Virus record (IMG/VR): IMGVR_UViG_3300035660_000006
DNA length: 64,000 bases
Origin: a virus
Reading direction: 5' to 3' (one strand)
Shown: in pieces, positions 5,410 to 63,547 of the stretch
Numbering within the stretch: the stretch's first letter is position 1
How the letters are laid out: each line of letters opens with the position of its first letter
Made by a program: the position numbers and the translations under genes
Notes under the pieces: model-generated
The model's database searches: none
The model's input: the letters and a program-made list of their open reading frames with translations, nothing else
What the model was told of the DNA's origin: nothing

Positions 5410-5454
5410 ACTGTGATATTTTAACTTTTAAAATATTTAAATATTTTGGAAAAA

Positions 5455-25900: not shown

Positions 25901-25922
25901 AAAAATATTTAAATATTTGTAA
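25901..25922 (+). promoter_or_regulatory. conserved palindromic archaeal promoter element AAAAATATTTAAATATTTGTAA
   Basis: near-identical 22-nt motif repeated at 49065, 60625 and 63524; ATG about 24-25 nt downstream. Confidence 0.6.
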
Positions 25923-25945
25923 ATCTAAATTATAACAAGATAGTT

Positions 25946-26155
25946 ATGGCTCATAAAACTAAATTTGGAGTATTAACACCACAAGGAAATTTAGTTAAAA
26001 CAATGGAGATGGATTTGTCAAAAATCAAATCCCCAGACCCATTGGCTTATGCTTATGGTTTCTTTCAGGGAAAATCTGGGCAACCAATGAGCAAGGATAA
26101 AGATTTGGCAAAAGAATATATCAGGGGTTATAAAGAAGGTAAAAAGGTGAAATAA
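25946..26155 (+). CDS. small protein, MAHK start (M(V)HKK array 1)
   Basis: first gene after the conserved promoter. Confidence 0.5.
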   Translation: MAHKTKFGVLTPQGNLVKTMEMDLSKIKSPDPLAYAYGFFQGKSGQPMSKDKDLAKEYIRGYKEGKKVK

Positions 26156-26409
26156 TGCACAAAAAAATTGGTTCAGAATTAAAAAGAGTCACTGAAAGTG
26201 ACATAGATGGACTTGCATTCTATGAATATAACATAGATGGTGAAACTTTCAGAGAAAATTTTGTTAAGGCTGGTGGAACACCAGATATGGCAAATCACTT
26301 TTGGGAGAAGTTTCATGGAAAGAATCATGCAATACTTTCAACTTTCGGTGATGCTGATTTAAAACATCGAAAAATATTGACAAAAACTATCAAGATGGGT
26401 TATGGGTGA
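26155..26409 (+). CDS. small protein, MHKK start
   Basis: GGTGAAATAATGCACAAAAAA start context. Confidence 0.5.
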   Translation: MHKKIGSELKRVTESDIDGLAFYEYNIDGETFRENFVKAGGTPDMANHFWEKFHGKNHAILSTFGDADLKHRKILTKTIKMGYG

Positions 26410-26602
26410 ATTGATTGCACAAGCAAAGTGAAAAGTGGACAAAAGGATTGACTTGGGGAGATTCAGAACTTGAAGGAATATCAAAAGGCACAGGTTCAGA
26501 AGCATACGATTATACTTATGGAATTTATCCAATTCCGAAAACTTTCCAGAAGGAAGCAAAAAAAGAATTGAAAGAAAGAATAGAAATGCGAAGAAAAAGA
26601 GG

Positions 26603-26791
26603 TTGGTAAAAATGGTTCATAATTGTGTCGCAAAAAGAAAATCAAAAGAACTTGTTAGGGCAATCCTTGATAATATTGATTCAAAAGGAAATGTTAAATA
26701 TCAATATATAGTTGATGAAGTTGAAGATTTAGTTTTTCATGGTCTTGGAGATAGAAAACTTCAAGAAGAAATGATAACAGGTGAAAAATAA
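26603..26791 (+). CDS. small protein, MVKMVHN start
   Basis: GGTGA RBS; ATGGTTCAT. Confidence 0.45.
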   Translation: MVKMVHNCVAKRKSKELVRAILDNIDSKGNVKYQYIVDEVEDLVFHGLGDRKLQEEMITGEK

Positions 26792-27078
26792 TGGTTCATA
26801 TTAGACATAAATTTAATAGGAAAGTTGCTACTACTGTAGAATTTGAAGATGAATTAACAAAAGTTTATTATCACAGCACACCTGTAGTTTCATTTAATCC
26901 AGAAAAGATAATTCTTGACAGTGGTGGTTGGCACACATCAACAACTAAAAAAAGAATGAACCAAGTTAGCGATGAGTTTAATCTTGATTTCAAAGTCTGG
27001 CAGAAAGATTACAGTTGGTATGTTGATTATAAGGGAAAAACATTGCCCTTCCAAAGTGGAATGGAGTTGAAGAGATAA
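26791..27078 (+). CDS. small protein, MVHIRHK start
   Basis: GGTGAAAAATAATGGTTCAT. Confidence 0.5.
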   Translation: MVHIRHKFNRKVATTVEFEDELTKVYYHSTPVVSFNPEKIILDSGGWHTSTTKKRMNQVSDEFNLDFKVWQKDYSWYVDYKGKTLPFQSGMELKR

Positions 27079-27365
27079 TGCACAAAGGATGGAGATTTAC
27101 GAAACAATTCAAAGATTGGTTAGGTGAAAAAGGATATGGAAGATTTTCTCCATCGCAAGTTCCTAAATTATGGGAACAATATCAAAAAGAAAAGGGGAGA
27201 TAATTGGGACACAAAAGAGAAACATACAAAGTTTATGAAAATGGAAAATTAAGAGCAATCACAAAAAGTGAAGATGAAGCATTTTTTTGGTTGCAACACA
27301 ATCAACCATTCAGTTTCTTTTATGCTTTAAAATATGGTGGATTCAAGATTAAGAAGGTGAAATAA

Positions 27366-27575
27366 TTGCACAAAAAAAATTCGGAAAAACAAAATTTACT
27401 TAATTATTGGTTTGAAGCAGAATATGATAGATGTGTAAAGGCATTTAGGCAAACATTTGGTTATGATTATCAAGTTAAACTTTCAGTTGAAGAAGAATTG
27501 GATGAAATGAATAAAGATGTTAAAAAAGCACCAATGTGGCAACTGAAAGAATTAGTTAATTATTTGAAAGAATAG
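27366..27575 (+). CDS. small protein, (M)HKK start with TTG initiation codon
   Basis: AAGGTGAAATAATTGCACAAAAAAAA: the conserved context is retained but ATG becomes TTG. Confidence 0.4.
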   Translation: MHKKNSEKQNLLNYWFEAEYDRCVKAFRQTFGYDYQVKLSVEEELDEMNKDVKKAPMWQLKELVNYLKE

Positions 27576-27836
27576 GTGATATGATTGCACATAATATCAG
27601 AAGTTAGAAAACAATTTCATCAAGATGCTTTAGAAGAGCAAGAAAGAATGTATGGAAGCGATTAATTATGGTTCATAAACAAGAAAGAGCAAAATTATTA
27701 AAAAGAAAAAGAGAATTAGAAAGAGAAATTGAAATAGCCACTGAAGGAAGTATAGCAGATTATGAAATAAAAGAATTTTTAGATGAGAATGAAAAAGAAA
27801 TATTAAAAATTGAAAAAAAATTAAAAGGGAAATGAT

Positions 27837-28352
27837 ATGGTTCATAGAAAAGTGAAAGTGAAAAATGTATATCCATTTACTAAAACCACTGGAAAGTGGG
27901 GTATGCATAAACTTGCTAAAGACCCTAAACAGAGGGAGATGCAGACAGAGATTTTAGATTTATTGTATAATGTGAGATACTACAAAGGTGAACAGGCAAA
28001 AGACCATGAAGTGCTGTCAATATTAATCAAGCAACCGAAGAACAAGTTTTTCAAGTTCCTGAAAGACCACACAAGATGGGGGGCAACAGGAAGGTGGACA
28101 GACCAGAAAAAGTTTGGAGACGAGATAAATAGTGTAATCCAAGTGGAATTTTTGGACACAGAAAGTGATTTTATAGGAAACAGGCTGATGCAGTTGGTCA
28201 ACAAATATAACAGTGATTTTGTCAAGGAAGACTTGCTGTATGCAAGAACCGAGCCAGTGGAAGAATCGACACTGATGTTATGGGACTGGAGAAAAGAAGG
28301 TGGGTGTGTAATGAAAAATCCACTTTATGCTTGTGGAAAAAAAGTGAAATGA
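27837..28352 (+). CDS. protein (171 aa), MVHRK start
   Basis: ATATGGTTCATAGAAAAG; longest member of the array. Confidence 0.55.
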   Translation: MVHRKVKVKNVYPFTKTTGKWGMHKLAKDPKQREMQTEILDLLYNVRYYKGEQAKDHEVLSILIKQPKNKFFKFLKDHTRWGATGRWTDQKKFGDEINSVIQVEFLDTESDFIGNRLMQLVNKYNSDFVKEDLLYARTEPVEESTLMLWDWRKEGGCVMKNPLYACGKKVK

Positions 28353-28656
28353 ATGCACAAAAAGAAAGATTATTATGATAGAGTAGTAGAAAAGGAAATA
28401 TTAAAATTGAATAAACAGGGAAAGTCTATTGATGAGATTGATGAACATCTTGTTTATGGTATGGAATTCTCCCCAGAATATTCATGGGAGATGATTAAAA
28501 AAACACTTAAATTAAAACAAAAGGTGAAATGAATGTACACAAGAAAAAAATTTATGAAATATATAAATGAGATGGGAAATTTAGGATTATTAAATTACGA
28601 AGAACATACAAAAATCAAAGAAAGAATTATGTCTAATCCAAATTTAAGGTGAAAAA

Positions 28657-28839
28657 ATGCCACACAAAGGAAAAGTAAGATATAGGAGATGGGATGTTGG
28701 AGAAAAAGGAAGACATTACTTGCAAGTCGCTTACAAAGGTGCGAAAAAACTTGTTGAAGTTAAGTTAAAAGCATATAAGGGAAAAAAGGGAAAAGGTGCA
28801 AAAGACATACAAATATTTCCTAAACCCAGAAAAAAGTAA
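28657..28839 (+). CDS. small basic protein, MPHKGK start
   Basis: AAGGTGAAAAAATGCCACACAAAGG. Confidence 0.4.
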   Translation: MPHKGKVRYRRWDVGEKGRHYLQVAYKGAKKLVEVKLKAYKGKKGKGAKDIQIFPKPRKK

Positions 28840-42091: not shown

Positions 42092-42762
42092 AGAAATATA
42101 TTATTTTAATGATGCTGTTTTGTTTAGTGTTTATTCCAACTGTTATGTCAGTAGAAGTAACTAATGAATCAAGAGAATATGTCAGATACAGAAAAGAAGT
42201 CAGCAATTTCACACAAGAATTTTTATATTTTGATAATTTTGATGGGAAAAACTTTTTTGTTCAATTTTTAGTAATCCCACAATTAAGGGTATATGGTTCA
42301 CCAGAAACCATTTCAATTTGGAATCCAGTTCTCTATTTTCAAAGAGGAAGTGAAATTATTGGTGTTGATACTTCTTCTTGCTGGAAATGGTGGGGCAATG
42401 CTTCAAATCAACAAGAGCAAAGACAAAATGAAGATTGTCCAACTGTATCGTTTGAAATGAAAGCCAATGATAAAAGTATGACAATTTATATGTTTACAAA
42501 TGGAACAGTAAAACCAGCCCCAGCATTTATTACATATTATTATGGATATTCAACAGCGTATGCAGACGATAAAATAATTTATAGTGATACAAGAAGAATT
42601 GCATCAAACTCTTTAACAGAATTTTTTACACTTAATCTCAATATATGGAAAGGTGCTTACTATTTGTTAATAGTTATTATTATGGTTATTGGTGTTCTAT
42701 TTTTTGTGGGTGGAATACCATTATTAATCAAAAAAATAATAGTAAAAGTGAGTGGGGGATAA
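42088..42762 (+). CDS. signal-peptide plus C-terminal TM protein, SCWxWW family paralog A
   Basis: TSSCWKWWGN motif; C-terminal TM anchor. Confidence 0.55.
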   Translation: MKKYIILMMLFCLVFIPTVMSVEVTNESREYVRYRKEVSNFTQEFLYFDNFDGKNFFVQFLVIPQLRVYGSPETISIWNPVLYFQRGSEIIGVDTSSCWKWWGNASNQQEQRQNEDCPTVSFEMKANDKSMTIYMFTNGTVKPAPAFITYYYGYSTAYADDKIIYSDTRRIASNSLTEFFTLNLNIWKGAYYLLIVIIMVIGVLFFVGGIPLLIKKIIVKVSGG

Positions 42763-43553
42763 TGAGAAAAGACATTTTAATATTAGCAGGAATTTTGTTA
42801 GCAATACCAATGGTTTTTTCAATTATGCAAGACCCAAGAACATTAACTGATTTATGGTATTACATTCCTAATTATACAAATTGTTTGGGAAATTCTGATG
42901 GTTTAACACCAATTCCAATTGAAGGGACTTGTGAAAATCTTTGGATGTTTATTTTTACAAATAACACACCATCACAAATAACAACACAATTAATTCCAGC
43001 ACCAAATATGACTTGTTATCGCAATAATCAAAATTGTCCTTTAACAGGATATTATACTAATATGAGTTTTAAGGCAGACATACAGGGAACTTTTCTACCA
43101 TTTGGAATGTATATTGGTGGTGCGAAATCTTCAAACCATTCTGTTGATGTTGGGAGTTGTTGGAATTGGTGGAACACAACAGATGAAGAATTGAGAAGGT
43201 ATCAAAGGTCTTTCTGTCCAATAACAACAATTTCTTTTGGAAGATTTGATAAAGGTGCAGTTCTTTGGTTTTGGTGGGCAGATGTGCCTTATCCATTTGG
43301 AACAGCACAACCAGACACTTTCATTTCTTTCAAAGGTTATGGGGGAACTATGTTTAATGTTGACAATATGTATAGTCCAGATGCCCAATCAATGTTTAGT
43401 GCAATAAGAAGTTATCTAAACATTTCACTTTCACTTTGGAGAATACTTTATTATCTTGTAATGATTGTATTTATTATAACAGGAATATTTTTTGTTTTAG
43501 GAGTTTTGCCTATGGGTTTAAGATGGATAATTAAAAAAATAACAGAGGATTGA
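42763..43553 (+). CDS. signal-peptide plus C-terminal TM protein, SCWxWW family paralog B
   Basis: start at Met MRKDILILAGILLAIPMVFS; VGSCWNWWNT motif; C-terminal TM. Confidence 0.55.
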
Positions 43554-43772
43554 TATGGCAATATTAGGATTAGATGCAATAAACAGATTTTTTGATTCGT
43601 TATATGCTTATTGGGTCGGATATTGGAATGCTTGGGGAGTTCTTGGGATGGCTCTATTTTTTATAATTGCCCAAATTTCAGCAGTTTGGTTCTATATTAA
43701 AATAATGAATGCACTAATAAATTTTGAGCCAAAAGTAAGATTGTTTATTAATAGAGTGATGCTATTTTTTGA

Positions 43773-46139
43773 TTAAAATCTTTTTGAAAGCGATTTCATT
43801 CCAAACAATATAGCCATACCTATACCACCAAGAAGTATCACAATAAATATTGGCTGGACACATAGAATCAAAGTTATAGTTGATTTAAGAATAGATGTAA
43901 TGAAACACATTATATTTGCAGTGCATACTCCAATCTGCCCACAATAAAATCCACTTGGTGGAAGAGGTGTTCCTGTTTCCAGATGATAGACACTATTGTT
44001 CTGCGAGAATATCATCTCCATATTGTTTCCATGATTTGTGAGCCAAATCTCCTGAACTGAATTATTATTAAGATTTAAATAACAATTTGGAATGAATTGT
44101 TCTTTGTCTGCGTAAAGCGTATTTCCGACAACATTCAAATCACTTGAATTAAATTTCATCATTAATATTCCATTCTCTCCACCAACATTAAATGGTGAAG
44201 CGATATAACATTCAGTATCGGAAACACAAGTCATTCCAGAATGTGAACTGATTGGCTCATTATTATAATTTTTCACCTTATAAAATGATATATTAAGTGG
44301 TGGGCTTGGGGGACAGCAATAATTATAACTGGTTGAAAAATTATCTAAAGAATAATTAAGAATATGTAACTCATCATTCCATAAATGGAAGAAATGTGTA
44401 GAATTTCTTGTCATAGATGATGGGACATATAATCTTTGTGTGCCTCTCATAATTCCCAAAGTTGTTGACCTATTAAATGTTTCCAATTCAGTTGCACCAG
44501 AACCTTGCCAGAACCACCAATTCCAAAAATGCCTGTCTTTATATGGGAATGTATTAATATCTCCCCCATCATAAAATGACTTTACAGAAATTGAATCTTG
44601 AGAAAGTGGGGGGCTTGACCAATAAAAATACCATTCACCTTCCAAGTGATTCCAACTATTTCCAATACCATAATATTGTTGAAATATAACTGCTGTATCA
44701 TAATATCCCTGTTCATGCCCAACACGAATAGCCCAATGATAATTATCATCAGTATGAACAAATTTTGTAAATTCACTTACATGGGATATACAACCACATG
44801 AAGGTTCATCGCATGGCTGATTTGGAAATAACCAAAAATAATCCACATCATAAGTATTTGCGTTATCAATAATTATTGTTCCAACAAGATTCCAATTCTT
44901 ATCATATTTGTAGATATGAGTATTGTTGTTGAGATAATAATTATCCCTGCTTTCAGAAAATCTGAAATAAGTTGTAATATAACAAGCACAAGATGTTGGG
45001 TCAACAATATAATGTGGTTGCCAATCTATTGTTTCATTTTTCAATAATGCAGAACTAACTTTAGTCAAACTTAATGTGTTTGGATATGAAACAGCAGAAC
45101 AACTCGAATTATAAGTTATGTCTGGTGGGTGTGCTTGAAGTGTTGTTGTGGTGGTTGGGGGTGGTGGAATATTTTTAACTAAAGGATAATTATCATAATT
45201 AAAAACATTCCCTGTTTTTGAAAGTGGAAGGGGATAATCACAAATATAATCTAAATTATTGTCAATACAAAACATATCAGACCAACCTAAACCATTCAAT
45301 GAAGTATAATAATTTCCACCTATTAATGAGCCTTGAATTATGTTTGTCCCTGAAGTTAGAGTAGTATTCCATTGTGAGTTTGGATTTCCCATCGCTTGAT
45401 ATATGCATTCTGGGTGAGTGCAATCTGTAGGGCTGACCCAAATATTATTATAGAATGTAAGATTTCCACTCAAAGAAACAGTTCCAGTAATATTCACTCT
45501 TGTTATTAGGCTTCGCAAATTTCCCTCATTTCCATGTTTTAAATAAGTTAAATTTGAATCTGTTATTGTTGTATTGCGACCATCCACTGATAAACTTCCT
45601 TTGATATATTTGAATGTGTTATTTCCAAAATGATAAGAAATACTATCATGTGTGCAATGTATTGTCCCACTGATATTTTCAAAATAATCAAATCCAGTAA
45701 TTCCAAAACAATCAATAACATTATTAACAGTTATATTTTTTGAATAACCATAAAGGGCATTACCATAAGCAATATCCCAAAATGAACTTGGATTATTAAA
45801 ATAGAGATTTTCATATTTGAAATAATTTGTGCCATAAGAATGTAAACCATAATACCAATCGGTAACTGAACAATTGTAAATTGTTGTATTGTGTGCGTTA
45901 TTATCCAAGCCAGTAGTTCCCCATGTTTGAATTCCATCAACTCTATGACCCTGACAGTCCAAAATTATATTATTCGCAGAGAAAGTCATACAGGTTGAAG
46001 CACCTGAATTGATAATATCTGCTGTCAAATAATAGACTGTGTTTGCTGAATTCATATTAGTGCAAACATTGATATTTACTGCCGAAACAATCTGAAAACA
46101 AAACAGAATAAAAAGCATAGAGATGATATTTTTTTTCAC
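43773..46139 (-). CDS. large secreted, membrane-anchored protein rich in N-glycosylation sequons (788 aa)
   Basis: signal peptide; dozens of NxS/T; C-terminal TM; possible beta-helix-like repeats. Confidence 0.65.
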   Translation of the reverse strand: MKKNIISMLFILFCFQIVSAVNINVCTNMNSANTVYYLTADIINSGASTCMTFSANNIILDCQGHRVDGIQTWGTTGLDNNAHNTTIYNCSVTDWYYGLHSYGTNYFKYENLYFNNPSSFWDIAYGNALYGYSKNITVNNVIDCFGITGFDYFENISGTIHCTHDSISYHFGNNTFKYIKGSLSVDGRNTTITDSNLTYLKHGNEGNLRSLITRVNITGTVSLSGNLTFYNNIWVSPTDCTHPECIYQAMGNPNSQWNTTLTSGTNIIQGSLIGGNYYTSLNGLGWSDMFCIDNNLDYICDYPLPLSKTGNVFNYDNYPLVKNIPPPPTTTTTLQAHPPDITYNSSCSAVSYPNTLSLTKVSSALLKNETIDWQPHYIVDPTSCACYITTYFRFSESRDNYYLNNNTHIYKYDKNWNLVGTIIIDNANTYDVDYFWLFPNQPCDEPSCGCISHVSEFTKFVHTDDNYHWAIRVGHEQGYYDTAVIFQQYYGIGNSWNHLEGEWYFYWSSPPLSQDSISVKSFYDGGDINTFPYKDRHFWNWWFWQGSGATELETFNRSTTLGIMRGTQRLYVPSSMTRNSTHFFHLWNDELHILNYSLDNFSTSYNYCCPPSPPLNISFYKVKNYNNEPISSHSGMTCVSDTECYIASPFNVGGENGILMMKFNSSDLNVVGNTLYADKEQFIPNCYLNLNNNSVQEIWLTNHGNNMEMIFSQNNSVYHLETGTPLPPSGFYCGQIGVCTANIMCFITSILKSTITLILCVQPIFIVILLGGIGMAILFGMKSLSKRF

Positions 46140-46145
46140 TTTTTT

Positions 46146-46616
46146 TCACCTTAAATATGGATTCTGTTGTTTATTTTTTAATAAAATTGCATACAGTATT
46201 CCAAACACCATAATAATTATTGTAATTGAAATTATTAAAGTTTTAAAAATTTTCATATTTTTGTCTTTTGATGAATTTATTGGTTGTGTTTGGTTGAGAG
46301 AAATATCCATACATTTGTAGTATCCCAAAAGTCTTCTCTCAAAGATGAAATAATATTCATTGACAACATCTTCTGGGTATTGCTTTATTTCACTTTCTGT
46401 CGCAAGTCTTGGAGTATCCAAGCGAACTCTTTCTTCAAGTTTACAGATAATATTTTCTTCTGTAAAATTTCCTCTTATTTTTGGGACAATAGGCATATTA
46501 GTGAAATTCCACTTTTCTGTTGGATTCTTAATATTTGTTGCGATATAGTTTGCTTCTTGGGATAAGGCTTGATTTATCACAAGCAAGAACGCTATTAGAA
46601 ATAGAATGCTTCTCAT
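46146..46616 (-). CDS. signal-peptide plus C-terminal TM protein (156 aa)
   Basis: hydrophobic termini. Confidence 0.5.
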   Translation of the reverse strand: MRSILFLIAFLLVINQALSQEANYIATNIKNPTEKWNFTNMPIVPKIRGNFTEENIICKLEERVRLDTPRLATESEIKQYPEDVVNEYYFIFERRLLGYYKCMDISLNQTQPINSSKDKNMKIFKTLIISITIIIMVFGILYAILLKNKQQNPYLR

Positions 46617-46730
46617 ACCAAATTATTTAACTTTCAAAGTTAAAAGTATTAGTAAAAGAACCCCAAACAAATTAATTGAAAATTTTTAAATATTTATAAA
46701 TTCAAAAAAGATAGTAATTAAGTGAAGGAA

Positions 46731-47303
46731 ATGAAAAAATCCATAATACTCTTATCAATCTTATTGTTGCTACCTTTAATTCAAGCACACACAGTTACAC
46801 TAAAATTATATACAGACTTGCAGAAGACACAGGTTTACTCAAACGAATTCTTATGGGCTTATCTCCAGAACAAGACATTTGTGGGTGGAGAATTAAGTTA
46901 TAATGTATCTTGTTTTAACGCAAAATACACAGGTGGTCAGGCATTAGTCTTATCTGTTCCAACAGGATATTACGATGTCCTGTTTGTTGATGGTGCAATT
47001 TCTTGGAATAATAACACCAATTGCCCAGATAGAGCAGACAACTACGATATTTGGGCAACAGCACAGAGTAATGTTCTGATAGATGGGGACAAAACACTCG
47101 ATTATTTTGTCAACACAACATTGATTGCCCCACCGAGACAATACTTCTGGAATATTTTAAGTTTCAGGGCAATTATTTCAATAATAGTATGGATTTTAAT
47201 AGGTGCGTTGTGTTTTGTTGTAGCATGGAAAACAAATTCAGGGTTGGCAGTAGCAATATTATTTCTAATCTGCTTGATTGTCAAATTGCTTCTTGGGGTT
47301 TGA
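46731..47303 (+). CDS. signal-peptide plus C-terminal TM protein
   Basis: ATG at 46731 after TATA-like motif at 46678. Confidence 0.5.
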   Translation: MKKSIILLSILLLLPLIQAHTVTLKLYTDLQKTQVYSNEFLWAYLQNKTFVGGELSYNVSCFNAKYTGGQALVLSVPTGYYDVLFVDGAISWNNNTNCPDRADNYDIWATAQSNVLIDGDKTLDYFVNTTLIAPPRQYFWNILSFRAIISIIVWILIGALCFVVAWKTNSGLAVAILFLICLIVKLLLGV

Positions 47304-49056
47304 GGTAATAATTATGGGTAAATCTATAAGGAAATTTGCAATAATATTTTTCTTCTTTTCTTTATGGTTTGCTCTATCTAATATTACTTATCTCGTTCTT
47401 GCTCAAGAAATGGAAACTTATAAAGGGGATTTAACTTATAATGATTTTATTGACGAAAGGGGTATAGATTGGGAAGTAAAATTTGAACCTCAAAATAATA
47501 TAGATAAGATAGTATCTTCTGTCATATATATTGATTTAGTATCTGTTCCAGCAACAGCAGAAGATATTTTAATGAAATTAACTGTTAATGACGAATTACA
47601 TTGTTCTCCAGAAATATTCAAATTAGATGGATTTGAAGGTTCAAAAAAAATTAAATTTGATTGTTCTGGAGTAATTAATCGACAAGGACTTTATAATTTA
47701 CATTTATCAACAACACAAGTAATAAAAGGAATATCTGGAAGTTATGAAATTATTTATTATATGACTCCTTCTTGGCAGAAAACAATCGAAGATATTGAAA
47801 AGAAAATTAATGAAACTTCTTGGCAGAAGTCAATTGAGAATATTGAAAAAAGGATGGAAAATAAAATAACAATGGGAACAGGTGGAACTGAATATCAAAT
47901 GAATGATAATGCGAGAATTTTTGCAAGACTTCTTGATGGAAATTCCAGACCAATAAATATTGCTTCCTGCAATGCTACTGTTTATTATCCTAACAATACA
48001 AAACTTTTAAATAATGTTCCTTTAACACTTCTTGAAAAAGGAATTTATTATTATGATTTTACAACACCAAACATCACAGGAAACTACATAACAGTTTTTG
48101 ATTGCATTTTTCCTTCAATACCTTTTATTCAGAATATATCGATTAATGTTCCATTAGCATCTTTAGAGAGGTATAATGGGGAGTTTCTTTTTGATAATTC
48201 AAATAATATAACGATTAATTCTGCTTATATGACTTGGGTAGCAGATTTATCAGCAACAGGAGTAATTTTCCAAACACAATTCAACTATCAAGTAATCAAT
48301 CAAACAACAGGAATAAAAGCATTAATATTGTTCAATAAAACTCTAACTCAAAGTGATTTTTTAACCATTTCAGAGCAAGTATTTCAATTTCAAAATTTAG
48401 GTTCTGGAACTGCTACAGTTTATTATGCAAGATTATATGTCAATTATACTTGGAATGACCCACAACAAATCATTAGAGGTCAGGATGAAGTTCATATCGG
48501 AAGTGGAAATGTTAGTTATGTAGACTCTGTAGGAAATGTTTCTTATGTTGATACTGTTGGAAATGCAAGTGCAACATTCAGAGATTTAAGATATGCTGGT
48601 GGAACTGAATATTTTTCTGGCACAGAAGGGCAGATTACTTATCAATTTTTAGAAACTTCTCAAGGAAATCCAAGTCCAATAAATACTGCAAATTGTAATA
48701 TGACAATATGGTTTCCTAATAACTCATTGTTTATCTCAAATCAGAATATGCCTTATCTTTCAGGAAGTTCAGGTATTTATGTAACAAATTTTACAGTTCC
48801 ATCGACACAAGGAGTATATAAAACAAATGCAATCTGTTATTCATCACCAAAATGGAGTTATGGTGCTTCAACTTTCCATGTAGAGAATACTTTATACAAT
48901 AATCAGCAAACAATCTACAGTTTCTTACAAGCAATGAACACAACTCTGGTAAATAACCAACAATATATAATCTCTCTGGTGCAGAATGTTTCCACCCAAA
49001 TAACTACCTCATGGGATACATTTTGGGATTCAGTAAGTGCAAGGATAACCAGTTGA
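47278..49056 (+). CDS. secreted protein with two copies of the CN-x-T...YPxNT...FT-P...G-Y....C domain and internal tandem repeats
   Basis: signal peptide; paralogous to 49109 and 51213; 48-nt and 27-nt tandem repeats. Confidence 0.65.
   Translation: MSNCFLGFEVIIMGKSIRKFAIIFFFFSLWFALSNITYLVLAQEMETYKGDLTYNDFIDERGIDWEVKFEPQNNIDKIVSSVIYIDLVSVPATAEDILMKLTVNDELHCSPEIFKLDGFEGSKKIKFDCSGVINRQGLYNLHLSTTQVIKGISGSYEIIYYMTPSWQKTIEDIEKKINETSWQKSIENIEKRMENKITMGTGGTEYQMNDNARIFARLLDGNSRPINIASCNATVYYPNNTKLLNNVPLTLLEKGIYYYDFTTPNITGNYITVFDCIFPSIPFIQNISINVPLASLERYNGEFLFDNSNNITINSAYMTWVADLSATGVIFQTQFNYQVINQTTGIKALILFNKTLTQSDFLTISEQVFQFQNLGSGTATVYYARLYVNYTWNDPQQIIRGQDEVHIGSGNVSYVDSVGNVSYVDTVGNASATFRDLRYAGGTEYFSGTEGQITYQFLETSQGNPSPINTANCNMTIWFPNNSLFISNQNMPYLSGSSGIYVTNFTVPSTQGVYKTNAICYSSPKWSYGASTFHVENTLYNNQQTIYSFLQAMNTTLVNNQQYIISLVQNVSTQITTSWDTFWDSVSARITS
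47773..47868 (+). repeat. 48-nt tandem repeat x2 inside a CDS (WQKTIEDIEKKINETS / WQKSIENIEKRMENKI)
   Basis: direct reading. Confidence 0.7.
48503..48568 (+). repeat. 27-nt tandem repeat x2.4 inside a CDS (GNVSYVDSV / GNVSYVDTV / GNAS)
   Basis: direct reading. Confidence 0.7.
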
Positions 49057-49064
49057 AAATATTG

Positions 49065-49087
49065 AAAATATTTAAATATTTGTAAGT
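49065..49087 (+). promoter_or_regulatory. conserved palindromic promoter element GAAAATATTTAAATATTTGTAAG
   Basis: identical to the 60625 copy; ATG 22 nt downstream. Confidence 0.6.
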
Positions 49088-49108
49088 TCTAAATAATAAT
49101 AGATTATT

Positions 49109-50008
49109 ATGAAGATAACCAAAAAAAATATCTTAATGTCGATGTTTGTCCTCTCAATTACTCTATTTTCAGTAATGGCTATGTATGGTGAAAAGGTTGT
49201 ATCCGATGGAAGAATTGCTTGGGTATCACACACAGAATATTGGTCTAACGAGGAAGGGCAGAGCATCGTAAGACTTCAAGATTTTCAGGGCAGACCAATC
49301 ACAGCAAATTGGTGTAATGTAACCATTTATTATCCTGACAAGACTGCATTTGTCACAAACCAGCCTATGCTTGTAAATTCTATCGTTGGCAATTATTATT
49401 ACAATTTTACAACCCCAAACACTATGGGTATTTATGAAGAATTTGTAAATTGTTCTTATGGGAGTCCAAATGAAAAGTTTGTTTCAACTTCTGAATCATT
49501 CCACATGAATCCAGCACTTAATATGACTTGGTATCTAAACCAATCCTTGTCAGATTTGAATATTACACTAAACAATTATGGGGTAAACATAACAGCAATA
49601 AGGAATGACACTATGTATATTGTCGACAATATGGTAAACAAAACTAACTTTGACGATTGGAAGAATAACGCAACAAACCAATTCAGCGATGTAAAGACAA
49701 ACCTGACACTCGCAATAAATGGATTATGTAATACAACCGACAGCAATTCAAGTGATATGTGTCAATTATTGTGGAATATGACAGCGTTCCAACAAGCACA
49801 GAACATAACTTTCACTAATTACTTCGAGAACATAACAGAGACTACAACAAACCTGTGGAATTTTACTTCAGGAACTTTATTTAATAAATTAAATGATACT
49901 TATAATCTGGTCTTCGATATAAATGTAACAGTTAATAAAATACAAGAAAATGTAACAGCAATAAGACAAGACCAAGTTGATGATGTTCATATTAATATAA
50001 TTAGTTAA
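49109..50008 (+). CDS. secreted N-glycosylation-rich protein, WVSHTEY family
   Basis: WVSHTEYWSNEEGQ...CNVTIYYPDKT...NFTTPNTMGIYEEFVNC. Confidence 0.65.
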   Translation: MKITKKNILMSMFVLSITLFSVMAMYGEKVVSDGRIAWVSHTEYWSNEEGQSIVRLQDFQGRPITANWCNVTIYYPDKTAFVTNQPMLVNSIVGNYYYNFTTPNTMGIYEEFVNCSYGSPNEKFVSTSESFHMNPALNMTWYLNQSLSDLNITLNNYGVNITAIRNDTMYIVDNMVNKTNFDDWKNNATNQFSDVKTNLTLAINGLCNTTDSNSSDMCQLLWNMTAFQQAQNITFTNYFENITETTTNLWNFTSGTLFNKLNDTYNLVFDINVTVNKIQENVTAIRQDQVDDVHINIIS

Positions 50009-50017
50009 GGTGAAAAA

Positions 50018-50305
50018 ATGCACGAATGGAAAAAAGTTGGTTATGTTGGTATAGATAGTGGAACTTTAATTTTAACTGACCCTGCTTACATGAAAGAAAA
50101 TTTACCAACTTATGAAGAATTAGTTGGTTTAAAGAAAAGCAGTAAAGTCAAAGGAGACATAACAAAAGAAGTTAAAGTTGGTGGAAGTAGTGCAGTAGTT
50201 ACAAATACAGGTTATGGAGATGGAAAATATCCTGTTTATGCCAAAATAACTGATGAAGGGAAATGGGGAAAAAGAGTTTCAGAGATAAAAGTAAAGTTTA
50301 TTTAA
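50018..50305 (+). CDS. small protein, MHEWKK start (M(V)HKK array 2)
   Basis: AAGGTGAAAAAATGCACGAATGG. Confidence 0.5.
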   Translation: MHEWKKVGYVGIDSGTLILTDPAYMKENLPTYEELVGLKKSSKVKGDITKEVKVGGSSAVVTNTGYGDGKYPVYAKITDEGKWGKRVSEIKVKFI

Positions 50306-50478
50306 ATAAAGGTGAAAAATATGCACAAAACAAAATATATGCTTTCAGATTGGACAAAAGAAGGTTTGAAAGAATTAGGTTTGTCGGAAAATAAGTTTAA
50401 TAAAATGTCAAAAAAAGAGCAGAAAGATTTAATTAAAGAACTTAAAGAAATGGGGCATTGGTAAATAAAGGTGAAAAT

Positions 50479-50727
50479 ATGGTTCATAATATAAGAAAAT
50501 GTGAAGCATGTCAAAATGCTGGTATTCAATGGAGATTACTCGATGAATTAAGACCCACAGCAAAACCATACAATGTATGTTCAAATTGCTTAATTGAATT
50601 GACAACAACATCACTTAAACCAAAAGAATTTAAAAATCTTCTAAAAAGTGGGCATAAAGAAGGAGAATTTTTATTGCATGAAGATTTTTACGATGAGAAG
50701 GGAAGAGCATTGCAACCAAAATGTTAA
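50479..50727 (+). CDS. small zinc-ribbon protein, MVHNIRK start
   Basis: AAGGTGAAAATATGGTTCATAAT; CEACQ...CSNC. Confidence 0.45.
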   Translation: MVHNIRKCEACQNAGIQWRLLDELRPTAKPYNVCSNCLIELTTTSLKPKEFKNLLKSGHKEGEFLLHEDFYDEKGRALQPKC

Positions 50728-51212
50728 AGGTGAAAAAAATGGTTCATAATGTCTATAAAAAATGGACTGAAAAAACGAAGGAAAAACTAAAAACAAAAAT
50801 AGATAAATTAAATCCATCTCAATTGGGTTATCTTGAAGAGATAGTTGATTCTGAGTTTTAAATTAAGGTGAAAAATATGCACAAAAAATGGAAAAAAAGA
50901 GATGTTTACGAATATATGGGTGCAGGTTTGCCAGAATATTTTGAGGGTAAACTCGTCTATGTTGGCAGACCAAGAATGAAAGTGAAAATCAAAAAGAAAA
51001 AGTGAGAATATGCACAAAAAAAAGAAATATCCATTAGTATTAAAATGGAAAAGTGTTTACGAAGCACCACAAGAAGAAATAGAAAGAAGATTCAAGAAAA
51101 TGTATGGGAAAAAACCAACTGAAGAAGAAATGAATGATATTCTTCTTGAAGGGGAATTCTAATAATTTGAATTTTTTTAAAAATTTAAATTCTTGAAAGT
51201 TAAATATTAATC

Positions 51213-52040
51213 ATGAAAATATTCACTTGGACTAATCTTGCAATATTCATTCTCTTCGTTTCATTAATAGGATTAGGAATTTATACGATAAACAAACCAT
51301 CAGAAAAGTTCGAGCAGAAGAGTCCTGAAGAAGCGTATCTTAATTGGGTTTCCCACACAGAATATATTGCTGGTGATACTACTGGGCAGGGAATAATATC
51401 TGTAAGTGACTATAAAGGAAGACCTTTGAATGCTTCATGTCTGCTCTCGCTGGTTTATCCTGACAATACTTTTGTGTTTACTGATTACGCTATGAGTCCT
51501 TCTATCATCGCTGGAAACTACTATCGTATATTCACAGTTCCGAACACATTTGGGGTATATACAGAGTTCGTAAACTGTTCTGTCCAGTTAAATCCAGCAG
51601 TAAATATTTCTGGAAGCAAAAGCAATTCAATCCATGTCAACCCAGCATTTGATTTTCTTGTCAATATTTCACAGAACATAACAGACTTGAAGCAAGAGTT
51701 TGTTAATTTCACAATTGATGTGCAGAATAATTTTACATACACAAACAATCTGATAGATAATCTTAATGATAGTTTAGTAATAAATTTGAACAATACTAAC
51801 CAATTAATAATTAATTCCACAAATAATATATCGACAAGTATCACAAATTTCAGAAATGAGGCATACACTTGGTATATAGACATAATAAGCAGAATATACA
51901 ATTGTTGTGAGAGATGGATAGAAGAAATCGGCAAGTTGGGGACATTAGGTGGAAATATGATACAAAGACTACCAACTGGTGGTGGAACTTCGCAGACTAA
52001 TATGCCAAGTTGGTTAAAAAGAATAATTGGTGGTGATTAA
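51213..52040 (+). CDS. secreted N-glycosylation-rich protein, WVSHTEY family paralog
   Basis: WVSHTEYIAGDTTGQ...VYPDNT...FTVPNTFGVYTEFVNC. Confidence 0.65.
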   Translation: MKIFTWTNLAIFILFVSLIGLGIYTINKPSEKFEQKSPEEAYLNWVSHTEYIAGDTTGQGIISVSDYKGRPLNASCLLSLVYPDNTFVFTDYAMSPSIIAGNYYRIFTVPNTFGVYTEFVNCSVQLNPAVNISGSKSNSIHVNPAFDFLVNISQNITDLKQEFVNFTIDVQNNFTYTNNLIDNLNDSLVINLNNTNQLIINSTNNISTSITNFRNEAYTWYIDIISRIYNCCERWIEEIGKLGTLGGNMIQRLPTGGGTSQTNMPSWLKRIIGGD

Positions 52041-52916: not shown

Positions 52917-53050
52917 CCAAGTAGTCAGAATCGATGGGTTCTACCCCCAAGCGTAGAATGGCTTTTCTTTCTTTTTCTATTTTGTTAATAAATTAGACCT
53001 ATTACTCGATAAAAAACCTATATTCTAAAGTATATAAATATTTAAATACT

Positions 53051-53066
53051 ACTACGATAGAGTAGT
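53051..53066 (+). promoter_or_regulatory. palindrome ACTAC-GATAGA-GTAGT ending 5 nt before the endonuclease ATG
   Basis: related copies at 59636-59651 and 28846-28860. Confidence 0.5.
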
Positions 53067-53071
53067 GAAAT

Positions 53072-53875
53072 ATGAAGAAGTGTAAATATTGTAAGAACGA
53101 ACTTAAAAACCCTAAAAGAAGTTTTTGTAATCAAAAATGTTGGCATAGTTATTATTCTAAATATTATTCTGGAAAAAATAATCCTTGTTTTGGTATTAAA
53201 AAAAATGGAGAATACAAAAAATGTTCAAATTGTGGAAAAAAAATATGGGTTGTAAATAATAGATTGAGAAGACTAAATAATTATTTTTGTAATAGAAAAT
53301 GTTGGAGAAAATCAGAAAAGGAGTCAATAAAAGTCTTATGTAAATTTTGTGGAAAAGAAAAAATAACATACCCTTATGATAAGAATATAAAGAGAAATCA
53401 TTTTTGTAGTCAAAAATGTAAAGCAAAATGGCAGAGTGAAAATCTCAATGGAAAAAATAATAATAATTTTAATAATTATTGGAATAATCAACAAAAAAAA
53501 TCTCTTGGCGAAAAACAAAAAATAAGATTAAGAGAACATCCAGAAAAACATCCAAATAGAATTCTTGCAAAAAATGGACATATATCAACACCACAAAAAC
53601 AACTCTTCAAATTAATCAAATATTATTATCCTTCTGCTGAATTAAATCATAGAGTTATAACTAAAAATGGGTTTGGGCAAAGACATGCTGATGTTGGTCT
53701 CCCAGAATTTAAACTTGACATCGAATTTGATGGAGATTATTGGCACAACCCAGAAGATGATAGAGAAAGAGACCAAGAACTTCTCGAAGTTGGGTGGAAA
53801 ACTATTAGATTTGGTTATAAAGATTTGAAGACACCAGAAATGATAATTAAGAAAATAAAAGAATGGTTAAGTTAA
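53072..53875 (+). CDS. homing-endonuclease-like protein: three FCS-type zinc fingers plus a Vsr/DUF559-like PD-(D/E)xK domain
   Basis: CxxC...FC(N/S)xKC three times; C-terminal FDGDYWHNPEDD...GWKTIRF. Confidence 0.65.
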   Translation: MKKCKYCKNELKNPKRSFCNQKCWHSYYSKYYSGKNNPCFGIKKNGEYKKCSNCGKKIWVVNNRLRRLNNYFCNRKCWRKSEKESIKVLCKFCGKEKITYPYDKNIKRNHFCSQKCKAKWQSENLNGKNNNNFNNYWNNQQKKSLGEKQKIRLREHPEKHPNRILAKNGHISTPQKQLFKLIKYYYPSAELNHRVITKNGFGQRHADVGLPEFKLDIEFDGDYWHNPEDDRERDQELLEVGWKTIRFGYKDLKTPEMIIKKIKEWLS

Positions 53876-59604: not shown

Positions 59605-59635
59605 CTTTTTTCTTAAATAGATAAGTTTATATATA

Positions 59636-59651: not shown

Positions 59652-59655
59652 AATT

Positions 59656-60624: not shown

Positions 60625-60647
60625 GAAAATATTTAAATATTTGTAAG
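60625..60647 (+). promoter_or_regulatory. conserved palindromic promoter element GAAAATATTTAAATATTTGTAAG
   Basis: ATG 24 nt downstream (60671). Confidence 0.6.
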
Positions 60648-61708
60648 TTCTATATTTATTATTGATTAACATGGTTCACATGATTGAAAAGAAAGATATT
60701 TCAATTACAGGAGAAGAAATATTCTTACCAACTTCCCCTGAAGAGTTAGGAGAAGAAAAAATCGAGCAAGAACCTGTTGAAGAGAAACCTCTGCCCACAA
60801 AACCAGAGGATATTGAATAATGCTTATAATGAGGTGAAAAAAATGAGAACTGGTAGACACAGACCAAATAAATATACAAAACATAAGGTAACAAAACTAA
60901 GAACAATCGAAATACCTGAAGGGTTCAAATTTTTGACAGTTGAGAGACATCCACATGAACCACGAAGGATGAGAATTGTTTTTAAAAAGGATTGAAGAAA
61001 ATGCACAAAAAAACAGACAGTTTAAGTGACCCCAATGATTGGGAACATGTTAAGTTTATGGAAAATGAAGGAGATAGATATTTAGACGAAATGGATAAAG
61101 ACCTCGAAGATATTGATTCGCAATTATAATTAAATTAAAGGTGAAAAAATGGCAAAAAGAAAAATGGGAAAACATAAGGTTAAAGAAACTAATCCATTTG
61201 CTGGGGATTTGAAAGATTTGGAAGGTTATGGAAAAGCATTGCTAAAACAAAAATATACACCAGTAGTGCAACCAAGTCTTGCAAAAGTTAGAAAACCAGA
61301 GGCGTTATTCTAAAATGGCACACAAGATTAGCATGAAAACAATGGCTGGTGCTGTCGCAAGTCCAAAAACTCCAATGAGATTAAAATTAGGATTAGTAAA
61401 AAAATATCCAGCATTGAAGCAATACATGAAGTGAGGTTAATGCCTCATAAAATTAAAAAAGAAATGTTGCGAGATTTAATTACTCAGGAAAAAATGAATT
61501 TAAAATTTATTCAACAATTACCAAAAATAGATTATGAAGCATTTAGATATACAGTAAAAACCCCAGTATCAGGGGAATTTTCAGTTTTAGGCTCTGGATT
61601 TGTTCCAAGCGAGAAAGGGTTTAAGGCAATTAAACCATTATTAAATTAAGGTGAAAATAATGCACAAGAAAAAAGATAATAAAGCAAATCCCTTTGCTAA
61701 TCCATTAA

Positions 61709-62353
61709 ATGAATGGATTAAATCAGGGGAAAAATGGGCTGTCAAATCAGGTGATTAATATTTCCAAAAAAAGTGGAAAGCATAAAATCAGAAAAAGAGA
61801 GCCTGATTTATTTGAGCAGTATGAAGCCGAATTTGAACGAATGTATCCTGAAGAAGAGGAATATGAAGAAGAGCCAGTTGAAAAAGTGAAAGTGAAAAAA
61901 TCAAAAGGTATACATAAGGTTCAGAAAGAAGAATCATTATCATTATTTCCAAGTCCTGAAGATTTGCCAGAAGAAGAAAGCGAAGAAGATTGGTTAGAAA
62001 GACAAAGAAAAGGTTATGAAGAACAAGCAGAAGATTTCAAAAAAATGGCAGAAAGTGGGCAGAAGTTTGCATTAGGAACTTACCACACTGTAAACAAAGC
62101 AGTTCAGGGTGCTAAAAGAGTTGGGAAAAAATTAAATCTAACATTACAAATGATTAAGAGTAAATTTGGAAAGCATAAAGTTCCAAATCAACCTATTCAA
62201 GTTTTCATAGAACCCACAGAAGAGGGTGATTATGTTGTTTATGGTCAAACTACAAGAAGAGAAGTCCCTGTTTCAAAACCAACACAACCAGTTAAAGTTT
62301 ATACTGAATATCCATCAGAAGAAGAATATGTAAAATATGAGGAGTTGATGTAA
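61709..62353 (+). CDS. acidic hypothetical protein (214 aa)
   Basis: ORF within M(V)HKK array 3. Confidence 0.45.
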   Translation: MNGLNQGKNGLSNQVINISKKSGKHKIRKREPDLFEQYEAEFERMYPEEEEYEEEPVEKVKVKKSKGIHKVQKEESLSLFPSPEDLPEEESEEDWLERQRKGYEEQAEDFKKMAESGQKFALGTYHTVNKAVQGAKRVGKKLNLTLQMIKSKFGKHKVPNQPIQVFIEPTEEGDYVVYGQTTRREVPVSKPTQPVKVYTEYPSEEEYVKYEELM

Positions 62354-62571
62354 TGGTTCATAAAAAAAGTTTAGTATTAACAAAAGAAGATAAAATAAAT
62401 TATGAAAAAGGATTTCAAAGTGGATTTGAAGGTAAAGATATGGGATATTTCAAAGGTTCATTTTATGAAAGAGGATGGAATGATGGAAGATTACATAGAG
62501 ATGTTAAAATAATAGATGAAGTAAAATCACTAAGAAATAAAATGTATAAAAAACATAAAAGGTTAAGTTAA
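62353..62571 (+). CDS. small protein, MVHKK start
   Basis: ATGGTTCATAAAAAAAG. Confidence 0.45.
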   Translation: MVHKKSLVLTKEDKINYEKGFQSGFEGKDMGYFKGSFYERGWNDGRLHRDVKIIDEVKSLRNKMYKKHKRLS

Positions 62572-62824
62572 GAATGGTTCATAAAAAATTAACTGCATGT
62601 CAAACAAGAGTATTGAAACACCTTAAAGGAGATAGCCAGACTTGGCTGAAACTATCTAAGAAAGCAAAAGAGGAATATTTATCTGATGTTAAATTAATGA
62701 AGAAGATAAAAGGTAATTAATGTAGATAATAATGTAGATAAGTATGGTAACTGATAAACAAAGAGTCAGGGATAGAAGGAAAACCAAAAAGGAATTTAAA
62801 AAAGAGGACAGATGGAGATAAATT

Positions 62825-63007
62825 ATGGTTCACAAAATGAAAGACAAATTATATCTTGCAGATTTTACTTATGTCGAGCCAGTTACAGGAACATATAAAG
62901 AAGCATTTGATTTCAAAGTTGAAGCAGAAAGTAAACAAGATGCTTTAAGACAAATTAAAAATTGGTTTAAAACTCATGGGACTATAAGAATTATGAAGGA
63001 AGGTTAG
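62825..63007 (+). CDS. small protein, MVHKMK start
   Basis: ATGGTTCACAAAATG. Confidence 0.45.
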   Translation: MVHKMKDKLYLADFTYVEPVTGTYKEAFDFKVEAESKQDALRQIKNWFKTHGTIRIMKEG

Positions 63008-63008
63008 T

Positions 63009-63293
63009 ATGGTTCATAAAAAAAAGAAATTAATTATAGAAGTTAATTATGTTTCACCAATGTTTAGAAGTTGGGGAAGAAAATTTTCAGTTGAAACATT
63101 ATTACCTGAAGATAAAGGGACATGGTTTATTTTAAAAAGAAAGAATTTTTACAAAAAAAATACAGCAATAAAATATGGTAAAGAAAAAGCAAAAGAATTA
63201 AATGCTAAATTTAGTGATAAAACAAGTTCAGAACAAAGATATAGAAAAGGAGAATATCTTATAACTAAAAAAGAAAGTTTAAGGATTGATTAA
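63009..63293 (+). CDS. small protein, MVHKKKK start
   Basis: ATGGTTCATAAAAAAAAG. Confidence 0.45.
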   Translation: MVHKKKKLIIEVNYVSPMFRSWGRKFSVETLLPEDKGTWFILKRKNFYKKNTAIKYGKEKAKELNAKFSDKTSSEQRYRKGEYLITKKESLRID

Positions 63294-63295
63294 AT

Positions 63296-63517
63296 ATGGT
63301 TCATAAAATGGATTTAAAAAATGTAGATGTTAAGGCAGTCTTGATTATTGGACAGCCCACAGAAGATATTAAACAGGAAGTTCCTAAAGATGTTCCAACC
63401 AAAGAAGTCAGTGATGATTTCTATTCTGATTTGGATTCAGGTATGGATGAGTTCACTGAATCTCTTGGTGGTGCTAAGAGAGATAAAGAACCTCTTTTTG
63501 CCGAAAAATCCCTTTAA
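63296..63517 (+). CDS. small acidic protein, MVHKMD start
   Basis: ATGGTTCATAAAATGG. Confidence 0.45.
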   Translation: MVHKMDLKNVDVKAVLIIGQPTEDIKQEVPKDVPTKEVSDDFYSDLDSGMDEFTESLGGAKRDKEPLFAEKSL

Positions 63518-63523: not shown

Positions 63524-63547
63524 GAAAAAATTTAAATATTTGTAATG
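63524..63547 (+). promoter_or_regulatory. conserved promoter element GAAAAAATTTAAATATTTGTAATG
   Basis: variant of the 22-nt motif; ATG at 63567. Confidence 0.55.

Follow-up and report, generated by a model that had tools for sequence, protein, structure and literature searches.

Repeated promoter boxes are already known from archaeal viruses. A consensus regulatory sequence of early and anti-defence genes has been described in SIRV2 and other Sulfolobales viruses. In SIRV2 it lies before small, poorly conserved genes and the winged helix-turn-helix (wHTH) protein Aca8 is its predicted repressor. Versions of it differ from virus to virus, and in some of them inverted repeats overlap the B recognition element (BRE) and are presumed to be bound by a repressor (Bhoobalan-Chitty et al. 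2024, PMC11065993). The archaeal promoter itself comprises a TATA element of the form TTTAWATA with a purine-rich BRE directly 5' of it, about 25-28 nt before the start (PMC11065993), and the same layout of TATA, upstream BRE and start spacing is given in PMC8553660. In halovirus HF2 and the haloferacalesviruses two classes of intergenic repeats, of 58 bp and 29 bp, carry TATA-like AT motifs. They were identified as promoters by reporter assays and primer extension, and their position and orientation are conserved across the genus (Russ, Pfeiffer and Dyall-Smith 2021, PMC8707807). The subject of this analysis is a 23-nt box in a 64,000-nt stretch (the window) of the IMG/VR virus record IMGVR_UViG_3300035660_000006. 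The window is part of a 73,232-bp Joint Genome Institute (JGI) metagenome contig, and the element family is undescribed. The box is deeply conserved, is present in five strong copies and one weaker copy and very probably serves as a promoter read by the TATA-binding protein (TBP) and transcription factor B (TFB) of the host.

As in SIRV2, a near-identical sequence of about 20-30 nt is repeated before many genes of one archaeal viral genome. It combines a purine-rich BRE with a TTTAWATA TATA. Small ORFan genes that vary far more than the promoter lie behind the SIRV2 sequence, and three of the five box units are likewise variable small-gene arrays. Different lineages carry their own versions of the cassette, as do the Sulfolobales viruses. 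Unlike SIRV2, the element is uncultivated, metagenomic, low in GC and not of the Sulfolobales, with no sequence relation beyond the generic BRE and TATA, and two of the five box units encode large secreted glycoprotein-like proteins instead of small ORFans. With regard to the early expression, anti-defence role and cognate repressor of the SIRV2 type, the sole repressor candidate here was a sub-threshold wHTH match at 37868-38062. HF2 is alike in having two repeat classes confined to intergenic regions (here the box and TTTAAAGTTAAA) at positions conserved in relatives. It differs in that its repeats were tested as promoters by experiment, whereas the function of the present box is predicted from sequence. 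The HF2 host is a GC-rich haloarchaeon. The HF2 motifs TCTTTAAGTC, CGTCTNNTAGAG and CCCTTTAC showed no resemblance to the box by eye and the comparison is an analogy only. By this analogy the box may resemble the SIRV2 and HF2 cassettes in action, and it does not appear homologous to them beyond the BRE and TATA.

The box is like a generic archaeal BRE-TATA promoter in its TTTAAATA octamer, in the A/G-rich BRE directly 5' and in a geometry that fits a start about 27 nt downstream. The predicted leaderless first gene, followed by internal genes with Shine-Dalgarno sites, is also a familiar archaeal pattern. Within a single genome, ordinary cellular promoters are not known to agree base for base over 22-30 nt. 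Such agreement between paralogous sites, and between relatives of 69-81% protein identity, is typical of viral promoter cassettes. T7-type phage promoters are 23 bp long and are read by a phage-specific polymerase. They share with the box a strict sequence of about 23 nt reused at the unit heads of a mobile genome. Unlike in T7, the scan of the window detected neither an RNA polymerase nor a TBP or TFB, and the sequence is that of a canonical host-type archaeal promoter. The box leaves knowledge of archaeal transcription unchanged.

Copies of the box and probable promoter architecture

The 23-mer GAAAATATTTAAATATTTGTAAG occurs in two exact copies (Table 1), with two mismatches at 25901 and 63524, and with three mismatches at 46678. 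The last copy is absent from the list in the earlier note on this DNA. That note had placed the box at 49065-49087; the box is present, and its true coordinates lie one base to the left. The copies at 49064 and 60625 have 30 nt in common (TTGAAAATATTTAAATATTTGTAAGTTCTA). No match to the 23-mer was found in 100 dinucleotide-preserving shuffles of the window. Exact copies of the 16-nt core AAATATTTAAATATTT were found at 5431, 25903, 49066 and 60627, and with up to two mismatches the core gave nine matches in the window against 1.16 expected. Reuse of the box at least four to five times, as originally claimed, is therefore borne out by five strong copies, the weaker minus-strand copy and the empty shuffles. 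The weaker copy had been reported at 5429-5446. It is real, contains the exact core and faces the minus-strand gene 5083-5409.

A weight matrix 40 nt wide was built from 23 distinct sites and run over the whole window. The sites came from the window and from 11 related contigs carrying the box (related contigs are given as L numbers). Scores were bimodal, and the scan for all copies that had been proposed as a check returned, within the window, a discrete class: five sites scored 40-51 bits and the minus-strand copy at 5448 scored 27. The reverse reading of the 25901 box scored 21 bits, all other positions scored 16 or less, and the maximum in shuffled sequence was 11.9. The five strong sites and 5448(-) are all intergenic, on a crude gene map in which intergenic sequence is 12% of the window. 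Each is oriented toward the next start codon, and the copies are thus not randomly placed relative to genes. The word AATATTTAA had the strongest intergenic skew among common 9-mers (15 intergenic, 2 coding).

Table 1. Box copies in the window, a related promoter, the genes behind the boxes and a predicted transcription start.
Feature	Position	Strand	Details
Box, exact copy	49064..49086	+	50.7 bits; BRE GAAAATA; TATA TTTAAATA at 49071-49078; downstream TTTGTAAG; predicted to drive 49109-50008
Box, exact copy	60625..60647	+	50.6 bits; heads small-gene array from 60671; conserved in L134, L147 and L123
Box, 2 mismatches	25901..25923	+	41.8 bits; heads array from 25946; orthologous copies in L127, L145 and L148
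Box variant GAAAAAATTTAAATATTTGTAAT	63524..63546	+	40.3 bits; heads gene 63567; same variant at L134:6559 and L123:7776
Box variant GAAAATTTTTAAATATTTATAAA	46678..46700	+	41.9 bits; identical variant at L102:5824, L119:8193 and L139:9128
Weaker copy	5426..5448	-	27.3 bits; core 5431-5446 exact, without GTAAG tail; 16 nt before ATG of 5083-5409
Related but distinct promoter TAAAATATTTAAAAATTTAAAAA	40951..40973	+	8.2 bits, outside the class; fully conserved in L139, L119 and L102
Predicted transcription start	49102	+	G at +16 past box end, 27.5 nt from TATA centre
Gene behind box, 299 amino acids (aa)	49109..50008	+	N-terminal hydrophobic helix; 20 N-X-S/T sequons
Small-gene array behind box	25946..28839	+	K/E-rich; many M-(V/A/P)-H-K starts; first MAHKTKFG...
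Small-gene array behind box	60671..63517	+	MVHMIEKK first, then MHKK.., MPHK.., MVHKK..
Gene behind box	63567->	+	MVHKTEKM...; runs past window end
Unit behind box	46731-47303 and 47314-49056	+	Predicted leader of about 17 nt carrying Shine-Dalgarno AAGTGAAGG

The TATA octamer TTTAAATA, which fits TTTAWATA, was invariant in 23 of 23 sites. GAAAA(T/A)(A/T) lay directly 5' of it in 21 of the 23; one of the other two begins with A and one with C. Every copy points toward the gene. The description of the box as an archaeal TATA joined to an A-rich BRE was upheld by this octamer and by the purine-rich GAAAA(T/A)A that adjoins its 5' side. Measured from the end of the box, the ATG lies at 22 nt for the genes at 25946 and 49109, 23 nt for 60671, 20 nt for 63567 and 30 nt for 46731. 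The fixed placement noted earlier before the first ATG of the arrays and of the 49109 gene was thus seen, at 20-23 nt from the box end. In the 30-nt spacing before 46731 a AAGTGAAGG Shine-Dalgarno lies between box and ATG. The same division held across all sites: the ATG was 12-23 nt past the box in 19 of 23 (mostly 20-23), with a Shine-Dalgarno in 0/19, and 30-32 nt past it in the other four, with a GGTGA or AGTGA Shine-Dalgarno in 4/4. In 20 of the 23 sites a G stands at +12 to +17, counted from the box end. On the basis of this split and of a G 27±1 nt from the TTTAAATA centre, a spacing that is canonical for archaeal starts, starts were predicted at 49102 and, equivalently, at 25939, 60664, 63560/63562 and 46714. 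GGTGA or AGTGA was found no more than 20 nt upstream in 37 of 128 predicted genes of the window.

In the proposed mechanism the host TBP would bind TTTAAATA and the host TFB would read the purine-rich BRE (GAAAA(T/A)A) just 5' of it. TFB would probably also touch the T-rich TTTGTA just downstream, and the contacts with BRE and TTTGTA would set the direction. RNA polymerase would start about 27 nt past the centre of the TATA, on a conserved purine located 14-17 nt beyond the box end (e.g. G49102). The first gene would have a leader of about 7 nt with no Shine-Dalgarno and would in effect be leaderless. In units whose ATG is some 10 nt more distant, a leader of about 17 nt would carry a GGTGA-type Shine-Dalgarno. 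Later genes in a unit would use GGTGA sites or overlapping stop/start junctions. Read in this way the box may yield a transcription-unit map of an ORFan-rich uncultivated element, with five units, predicted starts and translation modes. It is also a compact candidate for a strong promoter in low-GC archaea.

No TBP, TFB or RNA polymerase was detected among about 110 open reading frames (ORFs) scanned. The sole related match was a below-threshold TFIIB-type zinc ribbon in one small ORF. It is therefore host factors that probably read the box, and an element-encoded TBP, TFB or RNA polymerase as the cause of the strict consensus was rejected on the same scan. A bacterial sigma-70 promoter with TTGAAA as the -35 was also rejected: no -10 was found at 16-18 nt, TTGA is missing from several copies and the gene content is archaeal.

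An oligo-T run lies directly before three of the five boxes, and such runs may be terminators of the preceding units. In the window and its relatives, boxes at the head of M-x-H-K arrays adjoin a T-run (...AATTTTTT followed by GAAAAT), again a possible terminator. Those before genes for secreted proteins adjoin an A-run or a partial BRE duplication (TTGAAAAAAAT followed by GAAAAT).

Conservation in related genomes

A protein search that made no use of the box brought up homologs of the 299-aa protein, and their contigs were then compared. Orthologs at 80%, 70% and 69% identity (L102-105, L113 and L106-108, respectively) keep GAAAATATTTAAATATTTGTA at the same distance from the ATG, with diverged flanks. 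Overall, the orthologs keeping the 22-nt run ranged from 69 to 81% in amino acid identity. In a four-way alignment of 1.2 kb with 38% invariant columns, the longest invariant run was the 22 nt of 49063-49084 and the next longest was 9 nt. No coding stretch in that alignment is therefore as well conserved as the box. L097, with an MCM 88% identical, keeps the core at the position syntenic to 5431; its flanks have diverged. Five copies were present in the 14.7 kb of L134 and three in L123, with the same orientation and geometry and before orthologous or similar genes. Orthologs keep the variants site by site: the 46731 gene is preceded by GAAAATTTTT...ATAAA and the 63567 gene by GAAAAAATTT...GTAAT. 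Both position and orientation of the box are conserved among the related genomes.

The exact sequence also occurs in unrelated DNA. A metagenome scan for the invariant 21-mer gave 34 stretches. About 10 were relatives of the window by tblastx (two already compared) and the remaining approximately 24 were chance singletons unrelated to it. Exact 20-21-mers gave five matches in IMG/VR. In a set of 185,579 genomes they gave 90 stretches, of which the 85 listed came from unrelated taxa. All of these matches were singletons, and tblastx related none of them to the window. A marker of this family would be multiple copies in the right context; the sequence alone is insufficient, as it recurs by chance. 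The singletons are what could be said for chance recurrence of low-complexity AT-rich sequence as the origin of the window copies, in a genome of 31% GC. This explanation was regarded as refuted by the shuffles (0 against 5 in the window), by the alignment, in which the box is the longest invariant run, and by the weight matrix; every copy is also intergenic and gene-oriented.

No box was found before the 42%-identity homolog in L109-112. A different cassette, ATGTACATGATGGACAGAAGTTTAATAA..., is present there and occurs twice on that contig. The L109 cassette reads ATGTACATGATGGACAGAA(A)GTTTA(A)TAA at 9943-9985 and 14249-14291, and one copy precedes the ortholog of a box-driven gene. Promoter cassettes seem to have been replaced lineage by lineage. 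The promoter of gene 51213 (51169-51212) is box-like in L139 and L119 (CAAAATTTTAAATATTTAAGAG) and diverged in the window (TTAAAAATTTAAATTCTTGAAAG, 10 bits). From this comparison it appears to be an example of a box decaying or converting.

Palindrome, direction and regulation

The 16-nt core is its own reverse complement in the canonical copies, as the earlier note had stated. The palindrome does not appear to matter in itself and is probably incidental, because conserved variants break the symmetry without compensation. The invariant part across sites is TTTAAATATTT(G/A)TA. AAATTTTT and AAAAATTT are tolerated in the left half while the right half shows no matching change, and in the asymmetric variants AAATTTTTAAATATTT and AAAAATTTAAATATTT, each conserved in 3-4 orthologs, the left half alone is altered. 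The flanks are asymmetric yet conserved, with a T- or A-run and then G upstream and GTAAGTTCTA downstream. Dyad symmetry would be a by-product of a symmetric A/T-rich TATA set between A-rich and T-rich tracts, with no selection on the symmetry as such, and a symmetric dimer operator is not supported. A hairpin or RNA element was ruled out by the weak single-strand fold of the region (-5.5 kcal/mol, all A-T pairs, z = -2.2) and by the finding of no Rfam family in the window.

Bidirectional firing from the palindromic core had been suggested. The core is the same on both strands, including the AAA-TA-TTTAAATA arrangement. It is nevertheless very unlikely that the box fires both ways, since reverse-strand weight-matrix scores were 21 bits or less and the conserved flanks are asymmetric. 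The upstream neighbor is co-directional at 25901, 49064, 60625 and 63524. At 46678 a divergent gene begins 61 nt away with its own upstream motif, and at none of the copies does a divergent gene lie within promoter range. The suggestion was not upheld.

A perfect 16-bp palindrome, one copy of which lies 52 nt past the ParB_N gene 24938-25849, could also be a parS-like centromere or an origin-type site bound by the ParB_N protein or a replication factor, rather than a promoter. This is very improbable. Every copy has a fixed distance and orientation to a start codon, which is unexpected for parS or origin recognition box (ORB) sites. The copies are dispersed before unrelated genes, the conserved variants lose symmetry, and the match of the ParB helix-turn-helix domain was below threshold (18 against 22.6 bits).

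The promoter reading is preferred to these, and several points weigh against it. Conservation extends 7 nt past the TATA (TTTGTAA) and about 9 nt more among paralogous copies (GTTCTAAAT). This exceeds the minimal need of BRE and TATA, and an additional factor could be involved. The start site, leaderless translation and factor identities were all deduced from the DNA. Neither the exact-box scans nor the TnpB homologs pointed to a host with whose promoters the box could be compared. Many of the sites in relatives were found via a box search, which inflates conservation inside the 21-mer there; the protein-found orthologs and secondary sites are free of this bias.

The first of these points bears on whether the box is promoter and operator at once, bound also by a dedicated regulator of the element or the host that would switch the units as one temporal class. 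This is possible, if rather doubtful. TBP and TFB together have a footprint of about 22 nt, and TFB contacts DNA on both sides of the TATA. The invariant 22 nt approximates that footprint, so an extra factor is not required. The conserved variants do not maintain dyad symmetry, and the genes behind the box are functionally mixed, with both small-gene arrays and surface glycoproteins. In favor of a regulator are the conservation past BRE and TATA into TTTGTAAG(TTCTA), the driving of other genes by a second discrete promoter type, and the different repeated cassette of the distant L109 lineage before an orthologous gene. A weak wHTH candidate is encoded at 37868-38062; its match is below threshold, at 18.7 bits against the 21.9 of Pfam. 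Precedents exist in Aca8, the predicted repressor at the SIRV2 early-gene consensus, with wHTH or leucine-zipper repressors and with inverted repeats overlapping the BRE (PMC11065993). That the box marks a separate co-regulated class is plausible in view of the second promoter type and of the conservation beyond the TATA.

The second discrete motif, TTTAAAGTT(A/T)AAA, lies about 15 nt before the ATG at 228, 13950, 18633(-), 36952, 54958(-), 40600(-) and 40647. Like the box, it is confined to intergenic regions; AAAGTTAAA and AACTTTAAA rank just behind the box words among intergenic 9-mers. Sites of this second class were located at 200, 13922, 18661(-), 36924, 40617/40629(-), 54718(-) and 39949. 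The 15-nt spacing is truly leaderless in its geometry. Divergent genes are served by the copy at 40617/40629, and the class is kept in the close relative L139 and lost in L119. A third cassette was noted at 53028-53071 and 59620-59655, with a TATA-like sequence and then an inverted repeat (CTACGATAGAGTAG and CTACGATATAGTAG) just before the ATG. It precedes two endonuclease-like genes, 53072 with weak DUF559/Vsr-type Pfam matches and 59656 with none. The 59656 gene is absent from L123, and the cassette at L134:2621-2726 matches window 52968-53074 at 96% identity. These findings suggest a mobile homing-endonuclease unit that carries an operator-like hairpin of its own. Given the second and third cassettes, the element employs several kinds of promoter. 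Gene 40988-42091, for a signal-peptide protein, has the related but distinct promoter TAAAATATTTAAAAATTTAAAAA 14 nt ahead of its ATG.

A broader proposal, likewise rather doubtful, was also drawn. The box would define a lineage-specific regulon in archaeal viruses or plasmids that form an undescribed family, about 70 kb in size and found in anoxic metagenomes. It would be a 22-nt TBP/TFB platform, possibly with a regulator at GTAAGTTCTA, driving hypervariable M-x-H-K arrays analogous to the anti-defence arrays of Sulfolobales viruses, and the cassette would be a junction at which cargo is swapped. Were this true, the box would be a search handle for early and anti-defence genes in uncultivated archaeal viruses outside the Sulfolobales. 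By the logic of the Sulfolobales viruses, the M-x-H-K arrays are candidates for early or counter-defence functions.

The element and the genes behind the boxes

The window has a GC content of 31% and no tRNA genes were found in it. It encodes an MCM helicase, a MoxR-type AAA+ ATPase, a TnpB, GT4 and PMT_2 glycosyltransferases and an MT-A70 methylase. The protein next to the MoxR-type ATPase matched von Willebrand A weakly, below threshold. Also encoded are a ParB_N protein, a LAGLIDADG endonuclease, a GT2 glycosyltransferase, DUF559/Vsr-like endonucleases, a Cas4-like nuclease, an SPFH protein and a Kyano_Gp96-like protein. An archaeal histone-fold protein of 66 aa is encoded at 38251-38448 and an Hjc Holliday-junction resolvase at 36588-36875. 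Most of the remaining ORFs had no match. The MCM, histone, Hjc and TnpB mark the window as archaeal, and by gene content the element is taken to be an archaeal virus or plasmid. The histone is also found in relatives (L106:69-272 and L148:13871-14071).

No close DNA relatives of the window were found in phage and plasmid collections, and the MCM shares only about 30% identity with MCMs known from plasmids or viruses. A tblastn search of phage records gave no match for the 788-aa and 592-aa proteins, and an IMG/VR locus search with the 299-aa and 580-aa proteins found nothing. The TnpB at 34381-35499 is 94% identical to TnpB on the L109-L111 contigs (L109:166-1263), where the glycoprotein homolog is 42% identical. 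The same insertion sequence (IS) element thus passes between two diverged lineages, which probably draw on one host pool. Among TnpB homologs from named cellular taxa (Hadarchaeota, Bathyarchaeia and Archaeoglobaceae) identity reached only about 50%, so no host assignment was possible from them.

The box heads five units, and the sixth, weaker copy heads gene 5083-5409. The cargo is mixed. Small, variable genes in M-x-H-K arrays (25946, 60671 and 63567) lie behind three boxes, and larger proteins of two sequon-rich secreted or membrane units, of 190, 580 and 299 aa, lie behind two. The 299-aa protein is the most sequon-rich of the window (20 N-X-S/T, with 0.9 per 100 aa overall) and is probably a surface glycoprotein. 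It had no Pfam or PHROG family. Its AlphaFold2 model, from 10 homologs, had a predicted local distance difference test (pLDDT) score of 47.8, was judged unusable and was not used.

Change is concentrated in the arrays behind the boxes. Where L148 overlaps the window, the two are for the most part about 99% identical, with about 94% over the first 1.9 kb. The exception is in segments of the 25946 array (window 26619-26787 and 27375-27835 compared with L148:1900-3210), of which one is absent and one replaced. In L123 an extra gene is inserted exactly between the box and the 60671 ortholog, and the ortholog then has a Shine-Dalgarno junction. Such changes could mean that the promoter repeats of 30-45 nt are homology patches by which cargo is swapped behind a fixed promoter. 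The position of the whole extra gene in L123, the replaced segments between nearly identical genomes and the 30 identical nt of the 49064 and 60625 copies are all in keeping with this. However, the patches are short and AT-rich, the arrays also vary at internal gene junctions that have no box, no recombinant breakpoint mapped onto a box, and purifying selection on promoter function suffices for the identity. Recombination as the reason for the repeats is therefore improbable, and promoter function is the preferred explanation.

The Kyano_Gp96-like protein (26791-27078) is encoded inside the 25946 array. At least 14 of 128 predicted genes begin with M-(V/A/P/T)-H-K or M-H-K-K and encode otherwise unrelated small K/E-rich proteins. 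The codons of these starts vary (CAC/CAT; GTT/GCT/CCA/ACT), so the constraint looks to be at the protein level. The X-X-His of a free N-terminus resembles the ATCUN metal-binding motif. The distant L109 lineage (11293-12534 and 17868) has the same GGTGAAAT-N3-4-ATGGTTCAT junctions as the arrays of the window.

Proteins with signal-peptide or transmembrane N-termini and a high N-X-S/T density are clustered at 40988-52040. This cluster had no Pfam, PHROG or phage-database match and is probably a surface or virion module. Sequons per 100 aa were 6.7 for 49109, 4.0 for 51213, 3.1 for 47314 and 2.7 for 43773(-). The GT4, GT2 and PMT_2 glycosyltransferase genes lie in the same window, at 31-36.5 kb.

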